Positions 2,452 to 58,707 of a stretch of 64,000 nt of DNA are shown here, one piece after another. The notes below the pieces were generated by a model, which saw only the letters and a program-made list of their open reading frames with translations, made no database searches and was not told the origin of the DNA. The stretch is from Phototrophicaceae bacterium (GTDB lineage: Bacteria > Chloroflexota > Anaerolineae > Aggregatilineales > Phototrophicaceae), in NCBI GenBank assembly GCA_965262335.1, contig OZ253528.1:84237-148236 (forward strand). The letters run 5' to 3'. Numbering within the stretch: position 1 is the first letter of the stretch; each line of letters opens with the position of its first letter. The position numbers and the translations under genes were made by a program.

Positions 2452-2477
2452 CCCCTCCCTAATGCTTTGGGGAGGGG
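2452..2477. repeat. REP-like hairpin: C-rich arm CCCCTCCC, loop TAATGCTTTG, G-rich arm GGGAGGGG
   Basis: Read directly. 8-bp stem in the intergenic gap between 2391 and 2500. The same loop sequence recurs at 49711..49731, and related hairpins flank the MITE copies. Confidence 0.6.
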
Positions 2478-6924: not shown

Positions 6925-7345
6925 GTGCTTGCGAAAACGGCAAATGACAGAAATAGGCCGAAAATGGGCAACAAAGGCGCAACAAAGGGCGGCAAAGGGG
7001 CAACCATCGGCGGCATCATGCCCTGATTTGGCAACAGGGTGTCAATACAGTATTGACATTATATGGGATTGCACCAGAATGGTTAACGATGCGCAGGGAG
7101 CGTGTCAGCCGGCCGGCGGCAACGAAAAAGTCGTCTGCGCTCACGCGAAACAACCGACCTCCGGCTCGTGCGAGCACGGCGATCTATTGAAAAAGTTGCA
7201 GGTTTACCAGGAAGGTTAGCGATGCGATTGCCATAGAGCCGAGCGTATCATCATCTTGCGAGAATCTGGGGACTAAATGGACGCGGTCTATTGCGAGTTG
7301 AGAATGATTGATGGTGACAGGCAGAGAAGCGGGTCCTGTCCTCTG
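6925..7345 (+). mobile_element. Degenerate, longer relative of the 39990/58335 MITE-like element
   Basis: The 3' ~140 nt (..AGCGATGCGATTGCCATAGAGCCGAGCGTATCATCAT..GGGTCCTGTCCTCTG) align with 40165..40305. It has an internal palindrome TCAATACAGTATTGA and GGCAA-rich short repeats in equivalent positions. The left end is not defined. Confidence 0.4.
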
Positions 7346-31031: not shown

Positions 31032-31970
31032 ATGTCGTCCCCCGTCGCAAGATCCGCCTGGTGGCTGCCGGATATCCCGAAAAGCACGCTCATGCGACGG
31101 CGCATGGTCTGGGCGTACGCTTTCGTCGCGGCGCCTATTTTCGCTCTGCTGGTCTTTCTCTTGGGTCCAATTCTCTTTTCCGGCTGGGTCAGCCTGCACC
31201 GCTGGGATATGCTCTCGCCTGTCAACGAAATGCCTTGGCGTGGCTTGAATAATTACGTCTTTCTCCTCACCAAAGACACCGTATTTCTTAAATCACTGGG
31301 CAATACTTTCTTGTTTGCCTTCGGCGGTGTCGGCGCTAACACCGTGCTGGGCCTAGGGTTCGCGCTCCTGCTAAATAGCCGTATCCGTGGACGCACGGTA
31401 TGGCGCGTACTTTACTTCATGCCGGTCATTACTGCGCCACTGGCGTTGGCTGTCATGTTCTCTTTCATCTTCGATCGCAATTATGGCGCCGTAAACAGTC
31501 TTATCACTGCCTTGGGTTTGCCCCGCCAACCCTTTCTCAGCGGGCCCAATCAGGCGCTCATGACACTCATCTTCATCGCTGTCTATCAATATGTCGGTTA
31601 TTATATCGTCATTTTCCTGGCTGGTTTGCAAGGCATCCCGCAAGACTATTATGATGCCGCGCAAGTTGACGGCGCTGGCAAATATCAGGAGTTTCGCTTT
31701 ATCACCCTGCCCTTGCTGCGCCCCGTCATGTTATTCGTGGTGGTCACCAATACCATCGGCGCCCTGCAGGTTTTTGATCTCGTCTTTGCCACGACCGGCG
31801 GCGCGCCGGCCAACAGCTCGATGACCGTCGTGTTGCACATGTATAACATGGCCTTCAAATTCTCGCGTATGGGCCGCGCCTCGGCCATGGCCTTCATCCT
31901 TTTTGCCATCATTATGCTCATTACGCTCATCCAGGTCCGCTTTCTGCGCGACCGTACCTACCAGGACTAA
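31032..31970 (+). CDS. Carbohydrate ABC transporter permease (MalF/UgpA type)
   Basis: Multiple TM segments and an EAA-like loop (..YDAAQVDGAGKYQEFRFITLPLLRP..). The tracked 5' extension (30933) covers the intergenic repeat, so ATG 31032 is preferred. Confidence 0.8.
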   Translation: MSSPVARSAWWLPDIPKSTLMRRRMVWAYAFVAAPIFALLVFLLGPILFSGWVSLHRWDMLSPVNEMPWRGLNNYVFLLTKDTVFLKSLGNTFLFAFGGVGANTVLGLGFALLLNSRIRGRTVWRVLYFMPVITAPLALAVMFSFIFDRNYGAVNSLITALGLPRQPFLSGPNQALMTLIFIAVYQYVGYYIVIFLAGLQGIPQDYYDAAQVDGAGKYQEFRFITLPLLRPVMLFVVVTNTIGALQVFDLVFATTGGAPANSSMTVVLHMYNMAFKFSRMGRASAMAFILFAIIMLITLIQVRFLRDRTYQD

Positions 31971-37429: not shown

Positions 37430-37455
37430 ATCCGCAGTTTTGAACGAACTCCCCT

Positions 37456-38280
37456 TCCCTCCTTGTGGGGGACGGGGCCGGGGGATGGGGGGCTAAGGAA
37501 ACCGCAGTGCGATCACAAATCACCGCCACGCGCAAGGAAATGTCACAAGGCATGATGGCGCTGCTCTTCAGCGCGCCCGCCGTACTCATTATCTCCGCCA
37601 CCATCCTCTTGCCCTTCGGCTTGGCTGTTTTCCTCAGTTTGCATAGTTGGAACTTGAAGCGGCCCGGACGCGAACGCTTTATCGGCTTGGAGAATTACGC
37701 CGACTGGCTCACCGATAGCGACTTCTGGGATGTATCCCCCCACAGAGGTGGGGGGAGCGTGGAAGGGGGGCATTCGAATTGATGACGCAGAATTCCACCG
37801 CCACACGCAAGGAAATGTCACAAGGCATGATGGCGCTGCTCTTCAGCGCGCCCGCCGTACTCATCATCGCCGCCACCATCCTGGTGCCCTTCGGCTTGGC
37901 TGTTTTCCTCAGTTTGCATAGTTGGAACTTAAAGCGGCCCGGACGCGAACGCTTTATCGGCTTGGAGAATTACGCCGACTGGCTCACCGATAGCGACTTC
38001 TGGGATGTATTCCCCCACAAAGGTGGGGGGAGCGTGGAAGGGGGGCATTCGAATTGATGACACAGAATTCCACCGCCACACGCAAGGAAATGTCACAAGG
38101 CATGATGGCGCTGCTCTTCAGCGCGCCCGCCGTACTCATCATCGCCGCCACCATCCTGGTGCCCTTCGGCTTGGCTGTTTTCCTCAGCTTGCATAGTTGG
38201 AACTTGAAGCGGCCCGGACGCGAACGCTTTATCGGCTTGGAGAATTACGCCGACTGGCTCACCGATAGCGACTTCTGGGA
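37456..38280 (+). repeat. Tandem array, 3 x 275 bp: G/C hairpin + first ~200 bp of the permease gene
   Basis: CACCGCCAC(G/A)CGCAAGGAAATGTCACAAGG recurs at 37521, 37796 and 38071 (period 275). All units end at GACTTCTGGGA (37730, 38005, 38280). Units 2 and 3 are near-identical, unit 1 is slightly diverged. Confidence 0.9.
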
Positions 38281-38962
38281 ACCCTTGCGCACCACCTTCA
38301 CCTTCGCCATCATGGCCGTCGTGCTCATTGTCATTATCTCTCTGCTGATCGCCCTTCTGCTCAATGAAAAGTTTCCCGGACGCGGCATGCTTCGGGCGCT
38401 GCTGCTGGTCCCGTGGGCGATTCCCTCGGTCGTCAACGCCTTACTCTGGAAATGGCTGCTTGATCCCACCTACGGCTTGATCAACGCCCTCTTACTCGAA
38501 ACCGGCTTGATCTCGACCTACCAAGCCTGGCTGGGGCAAATGCCCAGCGTCATGATCTGGACCGTCATCGCCTATTCCTGGATTCATATCCCCCTGGCCA
38601 CCCTGCTGCTGCTATCCGGCTTGCAGACCATCCCGGGCGATATCTACGAATCCGCCATCGTCGACGGCGCCAGTATCTGGCAGCGCTTCCTCTTCATCAC
38701 CCTGCCCATGCTGCGTCCCATGCTCTCCATCGTCATCATATTCGAGATGATTTTCGCCCTGAAAGTCTTCGATATCATCTTCGTACTCACCGCCGGTGGA
38801 CCCGCCAACGCCACCAATGTGCTCGGCTGGCAAATCTATACCGAGACCTTCCGCAAGCTCGATTTCGGCGCAGGTAGTTCTATTGCGATGCTGCTCGGTG
38901 CCATCACCCTCGCCCTCGCCATCTTGTTCTACGCCTTCCTGGACAAAGGAGTAGAACAATAA
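38057..38962 (+). CDS. Carbohydrate ABC transporter permease (MalF type), full-length copy
   Basis: TM-rich, EAA loop ..YESAIVDGASIWQRFLFITLPMLRP... Start ambiguous (ATG 38057, 38090 or 38102) because the 5' end lies in the tandem array. Confidence 0.8.
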   Translation: MTQNSTATRKEMSQGMMALLFSAPAVLIIAATILVPFGLAVFLSLHSWNLKRPGRERFIGLENYADWLTDSDFWEPLRTTFTFAIMAVVLIVIISLLIALLLNEKFPGRGMLRALLLVPWAIPSVVNALLWKWLLDPTYGLINALLLETGLISTYQAWLGQMPSVMIWTVIAYSWIHIPLATLLLLSGLQTIPGDIYESAIVDGASIWQRFLFITLPMLRPMLSIVIIFEMIFALKVFDIIFVLTAGGPANATNVLGWQIYTETFRKLDFGAGSSIAMLLGAITLALAILFYAFLDKGVEQ

Positions 38963-39834: not shown

Positions 39835-39989
39835 GCAAAAATCTGGCAGCAGAGCACAAAGATCAAGACGAACCGAAACTTTCAATTCTTAGTAGTTCCC
39901 ATAAAATAATGCGAAAAAACTTCATTTGTATCGAGAGTTCTGGATGTAATCCCAATCCCGCGAATAGCGCTCCCCTTCCCTCATTTTGG

Positions 39990-40305
39990 CTGAGGACAGG
40001 ACAGGTTTTGAGGTGGAACGTGATGTGGAAAAGGACGGGAAAAGGATAAGAAAAGGAGCAAATATAGCGATTACATATCGATACAGTATCGATATTGAGC
40101 ATGATTTCGCCAAATTGGATAGTGATCCGGCGAGAACGCGCCAGTTGCAAGAAAGACATGAAGGAAAGCGATAAGATTCCCATATAGCCGAGCGTATCAT
40201 CATTTGCCGGGGACGCGGCGACTATATGGTCGCGGTTTCATGCAGGAATTGCTGATGGTCGCTAGCTGATGCGCGAGGCGGGAGCGAAACCTGTCCTGTC
40301 CTCAG
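39990..40305 (+). mobile_element. MITE-like non-autonomous element, copy 1 (316 bp)
   Basis: Perfect 19-bp terminal inverted repeats CTGAGGACAGGACAGGTTT. 10-bp direct duplication CTCATTTTGG at 39980..39989 and 40306..40315. ~93% identical to the reverse complement of 58335..58681. Confidence 0.8.
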
Positions 40306-40430
40306 CTCATTTTGGGGGATGGGGGCTGATCGCAAATCACTTTTCTTGCACGGCAAACTTGGTACTGCTTTTGTCTTTTAGTGATTAAAATAAATCGTTA
40401 ACTTCAGCGTCCGCATAACGAGGCGCAACC

Positions 40431-49710: not shown

Positions 49711-49731
49711 TCTCCCTAATGCTTTGGGAGA
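49711..49731. repeat. REP-like hairpin TCTCCC-TAATGCTTT-GGGAGA
   Basis: Same loop sequence as the hairpin at 2452..2477. Confidence 0.55.
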
Positions 49732-49841
49732 CGGGGGTTAGATTTGCATGACTAACTTGGTATTACTTCTGCCCCAGGGCATAAGTCGCGCAAAATGCGC
49801 TAGCGGAATTATCTATCATTGACACCAAAGGCAGGTAATAA

Positions 49842-55926: not shown

Positions 55927-57231
55927 ATGAATATGCGATTGTTTGCCGCAATGATATCAGTGTTTTTTCTATGTGTTGTGGCAACGGCGCAGGATTATAC
56001 CATTCGCGTAACGTTCAACACCAATTTGCGGGATACCTATAGTCTCGAGGGCAATGTCGTTGAATCTGTGCCAGCAGGCGCAACCCTGCATGTCGTCGGC
56101 CAGTTTGGCCGATGGCTAACTATCAACAGAAACGGAAACGAAGTCTGGATGGCGAGCTGGGTAAGTCACACCCGCGTTGAAAGCGCTACTCAGACGCAGA
56201 CCACAACGCAAGTTGCGAGCAACATAGACAACTGCTGTTTCGTAGATCGGCAATGCAATAACGATCAAGAATGGATGGACGGGTATTGGGCCTTTCAAAA
56301 TGGTCAATGCACGGCGCCTTCAACATCTCAGGAGCAGACGCCATCGCAGCCCGCGGGTAATGAGACGGGTCCAATTGATAATTGCTGTTACGTTGATCGG
56401 CAATGCAATAACGATCAGGAGTGGATAGACGGGTATTATGCCTATCTGAATAATCAATGTGCTGCGCCTTCAACATCTCAGGAGCAGACATCATCGCAGC
56501 CCGCGGGTAATCAGACGGGTTCAACTGATAATTGCTGTTTCGCTGGCTGGTACTGCAATAGTGACCTGGAATGGGTAAACGGGTATCATGCCTATCAGGA
56601 CAATCAATGCGGGGCGGCGACCCCGGTGAGCTATGTGGATAGTTGCTGTCAGCTGGGCTGGAATTGTACGCTTTATGAAGACCGGCTCGTAGGGCAGTGG
56701 ACCATCGGAGAAGGCTTGGAATGTGGCGCGCCCATACAGGTTCCTTACGATGGAACGATAATAGAGGGCACAGAAACTTTTATCGCCCAGGTTAAAGCAG
56801 CGCTTGATTTGCTCAAGAGCGCCGCGCCGCCGTGGTATGCCTACGTGGTCAAGGGGCCAATTAAGATTCGCGGGGTTCCTCCCGGAAGCGGCACCTACGC
56901 ACTGGAAAGGACGATTAATTTAGCGCCTTCCCATGCTGCTCAAGCCACAATCGTGTTTGCCGGTACCATTTTGCATGAGACTTGTCACTCACACAGATGG
57001 CGTGCCGGGTTGTTACGTTATGACACTGAAGAACATATATTTATCGAAGAGAACATCTGTGAAACAGTAAGGACAGAGGTGCTGGAAGGGATCGACCCTC
57101 AAAGACCACCCAATGTCATTCTCCAACAGGTAATCGCTGAATTCTTTAGTCGGGGAAACCAATTTGATTTTGATGCCGGCGCGCGTCGAGAACGGGATCT
57201 TGCAGCCCATCTCCTTTCGACGATGAACTGA
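55927..57231 (+). CDS. Secreted protein: SH3b-like domain + 4 Cys-rich repeats + C-terminal HExxH domain
   Basis: Signal peptide. YTIRVTFNTNLRDTYSLEGNVV..GRWLTI (SH3b-like). Four CC-x5-C-x17-C modules, two of them a ~150-bp near-identical tandem repeat. ..GTILHETCHSH.. metalloprotease-like motif. Confidence 0.7.
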   Translation: MNMRLFAAMISVFFLCVVATAQDYTIRVTFNTNLRDTYSLEGNVVESVPAGATLHVVGQFGRWLTINRNGNEVWMASWVSHTRVESATQTQTTTQVASNIDNCCFVDRQCNNDQEWMDGYWAFQNGQCTAPSTSQEQTPSQPAGNETGPIDNCCYVDRQCNNDQEWIDGYYAYLNNQCAAPSTSQEQTSSQPAGNQTGSTDNCCFAGWYCNSDLEWVNGYHAYQDNQCGAATPVSYVDSCCQLGWNCTLYEDRLVGQWTIGEGLECGAPIQVPYDGTIIEGTETFIAQVKAALDLLKSAAPPWYAYVVKGPIKIRGVPPGSGTYALERTINLAPSHAAQATIVFAGTILHETCHSHRWRAGLLRYDTEEHIFIEENICETVRTEVLEGIDPQRPPNVILQQVIAEFFSRGNQFDFDAGARRERDLAAHLLSTMN

Positions 57232-58194: not shown

Positions 58195-58334
58195 GCTCAG
58201 TTGACAAGTGCATCCCCGGTAAAGACTTTGCGCAGGGACAACCCGCGCCAACTAAGCTATGAATGCGCGTCGTTCTGAGTTTGATCGGGTTGACTAGAGA
58301 CTATAGCCTTTGCGTCACCCTTCCCTGATGCTTC

Positions 58335-58681
58335 CTAAGGACAGGACAGGTTTCGCTCCCGCCCCGCGCATCAGCTAGCGACCATCAGCAATTCCTGCAT
58401 AAAACCGCGTCCATATAGTCGCCGCGTCCCTTGCAAATGATGATACGCTCGGCTCTATGGGAATATTATCGCTTTCCTCCATGTCTTTCTTGCAACTGGC
58501 GCGTTCTCGCCGGATCGCCATCCAATTTGGCGAAATCCTGCTCTATATCAATACTGTATCGATAGATAATCGCTATATTTGCCCCTTTTCCCGTCCTTAT
58601 TCATCCTTTTCCCATCCTTTTCCCGTCTTTTCCCGTCCTTTTCCACATCACGTTCCACCTCAAAACCTGTCCTGTCCTCAG
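58335..58681 (-). mobile_element. MITE-like non-autonomous element, copy 2 (347 bp), inverted relative to copy 1
   Basis: Same termini (one mismatch: CTAAGG vs CTGAGG). 9-bp duplication TGATGCTTC at 58326..58334 and 58683..58691. Carries extra GGGAAAAGGA-type short repeats relative to copy 1. Confidence 0.8.
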
Positions 58682-58707
58682 ATGATGCTTCGGGGAGGGG
58701 TTGAAAA

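Follow-up and report, generated by a model that had tools for sequence, protein, structure and literature searches.

A non-coding element of 316 bp in a Phototrophicaceae genome (GenBank contig OZ253528.1, positions 84,237 to 148,236) is a genuine small mobile element of the Chloroflexota genome that carries it. The stretch analysed is 64,000 nucleotides long and is called the window below; its own numbering is used throughout, with + and − for the strands. We put the probability at about 85% that the element is a MITE (miniature inverted-repeat transposable element) of an IS4-family, Tn5-like insertion sequence (IS), mobilised in trans and inserted into the tips of hairpins that resemble repetitive extragenic palindromic (REP) sequences. 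This reading is carried by the anatomy of the copies in the window, by full-length ISs with the same ends in other genomes, and by the flanks of the elements that bear these ends.

Anatomy of the MITE family and its insertion sites

Copy A (39990..40305, +) begins with CTGAGGACAGGACAGGTTT (39990..40008, +) and ends with the exact reverse complement (40287..40305, −), matching at 19/19 positions, and it lies between two identical copies (10/10) of the 10-bp segment CTCATTTTGG, one to its left (39980..39989, +) and one to its right (40306..40315, +), which form the tip of a hairpin. Both the perfect 19-bp terminal inverted repeats (TIRs) and the 10-bp target duplication had been claimed in a first-pass annotation of this DNA, made by a model from the letters alone, and both were confirmed. 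The second copy claimed there to interrupt another hairpin, copy B (58335..58681, −), stood up as well: it is 347 bp long and inverted relative to A, with one mismatch in the TIR at one end (18/19; CTAAGG...) and a duplication that matches at 9/10 positions (CTGATGCTTC and ATGATGCTTC). Allowing up to three mismatches, the TIR 19-mer has four matches in the window, versus 0.03 expected from 100 shuffles of the window, and these four are the two ends of copy A and the two ends of copy B. When a variable short-repeat block is left aside, 16 of 287 positions distinguish the two copies (about 94% identity).

A blastn search with the interior, followed by alignment, revealed a decayed third copy (about 6941..7335, +) with degenerate TIRs and an 83-bp internal insertion, in which the near-identical stretch CCATAGAGCCGAGCGTATCATCAT is retained. 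Its right flank, AATGTTTTGG followed by AGAGG..., resembles a loop and a G-rich arm; its left flank is unrecognisable. The window as a whole holds two intact copies and this one relic, all of them intergenic, and the 316-bp element, its 347-bp sister and the decayed copy are one MITE family of non-autonomous transposons.

The hairpin of C-rich arm, loop and G-rich arm that excision had been predicted to restore is indeed recovered at both intact copies. At site A the C-arm CCCCTTCCC (39972..39980, +) pairs with the G-arm GGGATGGGGG (40316..40325, +) once the element and one duplication are removed, and the DNA of the restored site, AGCGCTCCCCTTCCCTCATTTTGGGGGATGGGGGCTGA, forms a hairpin of −9.7 kcal/mol (z −2.5). 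At site B, folding of the restored site joins the C-arm CCCTTCCC and left duplication CTGATGCTTC (58318..58334, +) to the right duplication ATGATGCTTC (9/10) and G-arm GGGGAGGGG (58682..58700, +), giving a hairpin of −9.0 kcal/mol (z −3.1).

Hairpins of the same type also stand uninterrupted in the window. The one at 2452..2477 (+), CCCCTCCC-TAATGCTTTG-GGGAGGGG, folds at −10.4 kcal/mol (z −3.3) and has its right arm and the tail GGGGAGGGGTTG in common with site B, while the one at 37451..37477 (+), CCCCTTCCC-TCCTTGTGG-GGGACGGGG, has a loop type that is occupied in other genomes (loci L036 and L073). The first-pass annotation had named two intact hairpins, at 2452 and 49711; the former is present in full, whereas the latter (about 49712..49732, +), TCTCCC-TAATGCTTT-GGGAGA, has the same loop as that at 2452 and arms of 6 bp only. 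The unoccupied hairpins in the window number only three to four, barely above a loose shuffle control. Because they are so few here, and because in contig OZ242001.1, discussed below, the target hairpin is part of a dispersed repeat, we call these hairpins REP-like only.

A full-length IS with identical ends

A scan of 185,579 species-representative genomes for the exact sequence CTRAGGACAGGACAGGTTT returned 93 stretches, nearly all of them in Chloroflexota metagenome-assembled genomes (MAGs) from Phototrophicaceae, Aggregatilineales and other Anaerolineae. The TIR is not confined to the copies in the window, and its distribution agrees with the host of the window, itself a member of the Chloroflexota. 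Inverted pairs of the 19-mer, spaced at 1220 bp, are present in OZ242001.1, and a full-length IS with the same ends was found there: the copy at L001 6678-7897 is 1220 bp long and has one open reading frame (ORF) of 367 aa and TIRs that match at 19/19 positions. ISs with 19/19 identical TIRs measure 1220-1222 bp, and a single ORF of 364-367 aa, free of frameshifts, fills the element; there are nine copies in OZ242001.1 and further ones in L034 and in L097-L100 (protein P0011), from Phototrophicaceae and Anaerolineae MAGs and ENA metagenome contigs. The ends of the 1220-1221-bp IS in L001 and L097-L100 equal the left TIR of copy A, and the 1221-bp element that contains P0011, a 74% identical relative, agrees with the window MITE at 19/19 positions of its ends.

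A protein search with the transposase yielded 587 relatives (E <=1e-5), mostly of 364 aa and mostly on metagenome contigs of about 1.2 kb, as expected for a repeated IS. Over their 1220 bp, seven of the copies in OZ242001.1 share 100% identity, and a further two match one another exactly. The IS has therefore been active recently in the OZ242001.1 genome. As far as its sequence goes, the window MITE carries only the 19-bp ends of this IS4-family (Tn5-like) IS of about 1.22 kb, and beyond these 19 bp we found nothing in common between its interior and the IS.

The IS4-family origin that had been proposed for the ends is upheld by the transposase encoded between them, with its DDE triad, YREK signature and predicted Tn5-like fold. 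It belongs to Pfam DDE_Tnp_1, and its best NCBIfam match is NF033591, 'IS4 family transposase' (E 1.7e-34, covering 2-320 of the 340 profile positions). When 26 homologues were aligned, no variation was seen at D99, D167 and E266, which are spaced by 67 and 98 residues, or in Y259-2-R262-3-E266-6-K273 (YAMRNWQEQGFRDLK). What defines the IS4 family is the Y-2-R-3-E-6-K signature combined with a single ORF and with duplications close to one helical turn in length, and the family's triad is spaced D(60-110)D(100-150)E (PMC2266710); the D-to-E spacing of 98 is at the lower edge of the IS4 range. An AlphaFold model of the transposase has a predicted local distance difference test (pLDDT) score of 90 and a predicted template-modelling (pTM) score of 0.89, and in a fold search its five best PDB matches were all Tn5 transposase (E 1e-10 to 6e-9, template-modelling (TM) score 0.58-0.64), the top one at E 1e-10 and TM 0.63, with an identity to Tn5 in the structural alignment of only 13-15%. 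The nearest annotated plasmid relatives are 22-28% identical and are labelled IS4 family or IS4-like ISAs18 family. Of the subgroup traits tabulated in PMC2266710, those of IS10 agree with the CT ends and the size of 1.22 kb, and those of IS4Sa or ISH8 with the 10-bp duplication. The transposase is a clear IS4 relative and no equivalog of a curated subgroup, and its clade is distinct within the IS4 family.

Target choice at hairpin tips

To characterise the insertion sites we used every element end with at most two TIR mismatches, which gave 122 unique outward flanks. Their consensus is N10-GGGRRGGGG, with G at flank position +11 in 105 ends (86%) and at +12 in 103 (84%), and a strictly defined G-arm is present at 79 of the 122 ends versus 260 of 20,000 random positions (1.3%). 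We found 35 unique paired elements that have a duplication. The left arm is C-rich and the right arm G-rich in 29 of them, and in 18 of the 35 complementarity in a fixed register extends to 6 or more of 8 arm bases, versus 0.6% at random. The full-length IS copies with an identical TIR are uniform in this respect, since all 13 (nine from OZ242001.1, one from L034 and three with P0011) have a 9-10-bp duplication exactly between a C-run and a G-run, for instance CCCTTCCC-CAGTTCACTG-IS-CAGTTCACTG-GGGAAGGG. In the seven identical copies, the 9-10-bp duplication lies each time between the CCCTTCCC and GGGAAGGG arms. Not only the IS but also at least four other MITE families with this TIR are inserted at hairpin tips with duplications of 9-10 bp, and distant relatives of the transposase (P0025, 64% identical, and P0034, 49%), whose elements have diverged TIRs (CTGAGGAGCGGACA...), occupy the same type of site.

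Paralogous hairpins that are uninterrupted and carry the loop once were found in L050 (2442), L005 (7293), L048 (556), L009 (860) and L053 (543), and furthermore in L091 (5566 and 7605). The IS occurs in both orientations in one and the same asymmetric repeat, which is what symmetric target capture would produce, and the flanks of the IS copies in OZ242001.1 are similar yet clearly diverged from each other. Because the ISs are identical while their flanks have diverged, both orientations occur and uninterrupted repeats are present, the copies in OZ242001.1 are recent independent insertions and no segmental duplicates. The uninterrupted repeats are paralogous empty sites and show that the IS has recently and repeatedly entered the hairpin tip and duplicated the loop. 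A lack of duplications, an absence of hairpin preference and a TIR confined to the window copies were the outcomes that the first-pass annotation had named as contrary to its proposal, and none of them is what we observed.

We propose that a transposase acting in trans would bind both identical ends and move the element by cut-and-paste, probably as in the rest of the IS4 family. A two-fold-symmetric complex would capture the palindrome 5'-(C-rich arm)CC-N10-GG(G-rich arm)-3' at the tip of a REP-like repeated hairpin, usually just downstream of genes, with each half of the complex contacting one arm. Cleavage of the two strands at the stem/loop junctions would be staggered by 10 bp, or sometimes 9, and repair of the gaps would duplicate the loop, leaving the C-arm with the loop on one side and the loop with the G-arm on the other. 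It would be the transposase itself that reads the palindrome, most simply as double-stranded DNA.

The alternative that survives best, although we think it unlikely, is that the transposase recognises a structure and not a sequence, such as a cruciform in supercoiled DNA or a single-strand fold at the replication fork, with joining at the stem/loop junctions. The arms vary widely among occupied sites (CCCTTCCC/GGGAAGGG, CCCCCC/GGGGGG and, in L086, GTCTACGTGACC/GGTCGCCTAGAC), the duplicated segment always lies between them despite this variation, and the restored sites fold well as single strands, all of which speak for recognition of structure. However, several occupied sites (L003, L037, L055 and L081) have non-complementary arms and share the CC...GG boundaries only, which favours recognition of sequence, and the loop has a weak palindromic consensus, C-A-G....C-T-G. 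Transposases of the Tn5/Tn10 type, moreover, act on double-stranded targets with symmetric consensus sites. It is quite doubtful that a Tn5-like DDE transposase here chooses hairpin or cruciform geometry over sequence and cuts exactly at both stem/loop junctions, with duplication of the whole 10-nt loop; if it did, hairpin repeats would be genome-wide safe landing pads for the IS, for at least five unrelated MITE families and for nested insertions.

Some features of the target repeats themselves deserve mention. In OZ242001.1 the target hairpin (flanks in L028, L039, L065 and L070) lies inside a dispersed repeat of at least 250 bp with two hairpins about 110 bp apart, which resembles a BIME-like mosaic (bacterial interspersed mosaic element) or a further non-autonomous element. 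Other repeated arms also flank insertions, namely GGTCGCGTAGACAC (about eight ends, palindromic with GTGTCTACGCGACC) and GGATGCCCGCCATAGAG (four ends), at loci that include L003, L037, L055, L081 and L086; they are sometimes paired with a G-rich arm opposite, and the hairpin repeats appear to be mosaic.

The interior of the element

A repeat search places a perfect palindrome, ATATCGATAC-A-GTATCGATAT, inside copy A (40075..40095, +); it is present as first described, but slightly longer. Its counterpart in the relic (7043-7061) reads TGTCAATAC-A-GTATTGACA, where both arms have changed and the pairing is kept. This preservation through changes in both arms hints at a constrained protein-binding site or hairpin.

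The purine-rich short-repeat block that had been noted beside it proved to be a real A-tract block with an 11-bp period, which adjoins one end of the MITE and is variable in length. It measures 29 nt in copy A (about 40029..40057, +; element of 316 bp) and 60 nt in copy B (about 58584-58645; element of 347 bp), and 74 nt in the orthologues of site A (L096, 5806-5879) and of site B (L104), in both of which the element is 361 bp long. Since the block differs in length among copies and strains (29, 60, 74 and 74 nt), it behaves as a small variable-number tandem repeat. In the decayed copy an 11-bp-period repeat of different sequence occupies the equivalent position (6966-7004). The phasing of the block, near the helical repeat, suggests intrinsically bent DNA, and a phased 11-bp A-tract array next to the MITE end might act as a built-in bend that helps the transposition complex to assemble.

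The element had been described as lacking a convincing ORF, and we agree: a Pfam search of the ORFs inside the MITE gave no match, and the ORFs across the repeat block are not conserved, because the length of the block differs between copies A and B by 31 bp, which is no multiple of three. An Rfam search of the element region (E up to 1) found nothing at gathering score and a weak match at E 0.57, on the flank. RNA folding of the interior was no better than that of shuffled sequences (z −0.5 on the + strand, −1.8 on the − strand), and a scan of the region for promoters and terminators found no such sites. For a structured RNA, the Rfam search and the folding of both strands gave no supporting evidence, with only three copies known.

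These results bear on the idea that the element is mainly a functional non-coding locus, either a structured RNA or a regulatory protein-binding module, whose transposon-like ends are incidental or ancient. Parts of the interior such as CCATAGAGCCGAGCGTATCATCAT are conserved even in the decayed copy, which also retains the 11-bp-period block, and the palindrome has been preserved through changes on both arms. Set against this are the Rfam result, the unremarkable folding, the lack of promoter- or terminator-like sites and of Pfam matches, and the three copies, too few for covariation. We consider such a locus improbable, and a functional interior would in any case not conflict with the element being a MITE.

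Weighing the evidence

Several observations weigh against reading the element as a trans-mobilised MITE at hairpin tips. With regard to the transposase, the match to NF033591 reaches 119.5 bits where the curated cut-off is 152, and a PDB sequence search returned chance peroxiredoxin matches only and did not reach Tn5. No such transposase was found by tblastn in the 64-kb window, where the best match has E 0.009 over 54 aa (31718-31879) and was treated as chance. The first-pass annotation had likewise seen no transposase there, and mobilisation would therefore have to be in trans, presumably by a P0011-type transposase encoded elsewhere in the genome or formerly present there. The ENA samples with the P0011 IS differ from those of the window-like contigs, and a partner in the same genome was not seen.

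With regard to the MITE, only two to three insertion sites are known for the window's family. A blastn search of its interior against 105 loci found only the two orthologues, and none in the 93 TIR loci, and no further copies turned up in two scans of JGI metagenomes, for which an end-specific 22-mer and the best-conserved 24-mer of the interior were used. In the orthologous contigs L096 and L104 the MITE occupies the position that it has in the window, a more divergent strain (L094, L095) has neither hairpin nor MITE at site A, where the whole spacer is different, and among the orthologous contigs fetched via flanking proteins there was no clean empty site for either window copy; one of them, L105, ends short of the site. 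Empty sites of the paralogous kind are available for the partner IS only.

With regard to the targets, about a third of the ends fall outside the strict definition of a G-arm, and some paired elements have no matching duplications. The latter mostly have a C-arm and loop on one side and a different loop and G-arm on the other, the pattern that recombination between copies would give.

Another way to account for the hairpin association would be selection after insertion, with elements inserting widely and surviving only in harmless intergenic repeats. The copies in the window are all intergenic and REP-like hairpins are neutral places, as such selection would have it, but survival bias cannot give nucleotide precision: duplications at the stem boundary are found in most of the 122 ends versus 1.3% of random positions, and every one of the seven 100% identical, hence very recent, copies of the IS occupies a hairpin tip. 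On both counts we rejected it as very improbable. Finally, the notion that the C- and G-arms are the element's own outer inverted repeats, and the 'duplication' an internal direct repeat of a larger unit, draws on an inverted repeat that, counted together with arms and loop, reaches 40 nt with 78% complementarity, but it can be dismissed almost entirely, since arms and loops differ between A and B and among all IS copies while the 19-bp ends are constant, the window and related genomes also hold these hairpins in uninterrupted form, with one loop each, and a given asymmetric repeat harbours the IS in both orientations.

Other MITE families and further repeats

At least five unrelated interiors, that of the window family included, are found between these ends. 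One MITE family of 172-215 bp is widespread, another of 222-291 bp itself contains hairpins, a third is of about 200 bp, and one interior is a singleton. A 406-bp element (L029 1167-1572) is an internal-deletion derivative that keeps the last ~150 bp, the 3' end, of the transposase gene, and it illustrates how such MITEs can arise from the IS. In L097 (1205-2701) a 1221-bp IS lies in a hairpin within another MITE, whose near-identical ends are at 1205 and 2701, with a further degenerate end at 2813. One contig (L103, from position 1; ENA ERZ25068833) ends a few bases outside the boundary of MITE B, and the MITE repeat appears to break assemblies of this organism.

The window contains tandem repeats as well. 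A 275-bp repeat (37521-38280; 2.8 copies, 97% identity) duplicates the 5' end of an ABC permease gene (38054-38962) together with its upstream hairpin, TCCCCCCAC-AGAG-GTGGGGGGA (37735 and 38010), of which there are two in L096 and one in L094. A repeat with a 150-bp period (56233-56610; 2.5 copies, 82% identity) lies inside the ORF at 55927-57231 and may encode a repetitive protein segment.

Comparison with known systems

We found no description of this Chloroflexota system of IS and MITEs in the open-access literature. What it offers, from dozens of Chloroflexota genomes, is a record of a compact family of Tn5-like transposases with a near nucleotide-precise preference for palindromes, and of the MITEs riding on it. 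The 122 ends are a natural and sequence-diverse target set for the question of how IS4/Tn5-type transposases choose their targets, a question of practical consequence, given the standard use of Tn5 as a laboratory tool. On the side of annotation, the system accounts for a class of intergenic repeats, nested repeats and breaks in contigs seen in Anaerolineae MAGs.

As regards the interior of the element, we know of no hairpin targeting by the minisatellite-containing MITE of Porphyromonas gingivalis. That MITE (PMC4596501) is similar in having an internal tandem-repeat array of variable length, in another organism and with another repeat, whereas the array described here has an 11-bp period with A-tracts and sits by one end. 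As regards target choice, the first-pass annotation had likened the insertions to those of IS1397. Insertion of IS1397 and ISKpn1 (IS3 family) into the loops of enterobacterial REP/BIME palindromes has been shown experimentally, with the transposase responsible (PMC1525189). These elements differ in having an unrelated transposase family, two ORFs with a frameshift and short duplications; the targeting of hairpin tips holds, but IS1397 is an analogy of behaviour only, and ISRm22 is the closer precedent.

Within the IS4 family, IS231A of Bacillus thuringiensis prefers a short symmetric target bounded by G/C, GGG(N)5CCC. It resembles the Chloroflexota elements in some insertion specificity and in duplications of 10-12 bp (PMC2266710), and differs in its length of at least 1450 bp, its CAT ends, its Firmicutes host and a target that is no dispersed family of hairpin repeats. 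IS10/Tn10 and IS50/Tn5 have in common with the Chloroflexota IS a single-ORF DDE transposase, the YREK signature, CT(G/A) ends, duplications of about one helical turn and the Tn5 fold predicted here, and the size range of the IS10 subgroup, 1200-1350 bp (PMC2266710), includes that of the partner IS. IS10 and IS50 have 9-bp duplications and a loose symmetric target preference, whereas the Chloroflexota IS has mostly 10-bp duplications and is strongly restricted to repeated palindromes.

The targeting of REPs by insertion sequences is established for five families, IS4 among them through ISRm22 (PMC1525189). The Chloroflexota elements agree with the type 1 association of Tobes and Pareja in that all or nearly all of their copies break a repeated palindrome at one and the same position. 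In Sinorhizobium meliloti 1021 all copies of ISRm22 (IS4 family, subgroup IS4Sa) lie at the palindrome axis of REPs (PMC1525189, PMC2266710), some of them with hybrid flanks that were ascribed to recombination between copies (PMC1525189), and strong target-arm specificity has been noted in the IS4 and IS4Sa subgroups (PMC2266710). Palindrome targeting by an IS4-family element is thus already published, and there is no new type of mobile element here. By its published description, ISRm22 is alike in its IS4-family DDE transposase, in occupying one position in repeated extragenic palindromes and in its hybrid flanks; it differs in its 6-bp direct repeats, its alphaproteobacterial host and its CA ends, whereas the Chloroflexota system has duplications of 9-10 bp that span the whole loop, CT ends and several MITE families with common ends. 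Distinctive, then, is a Chloroflexota clade of compact IS4-family elements with 10-bp loop duplications and MITE families that have their ends in common.

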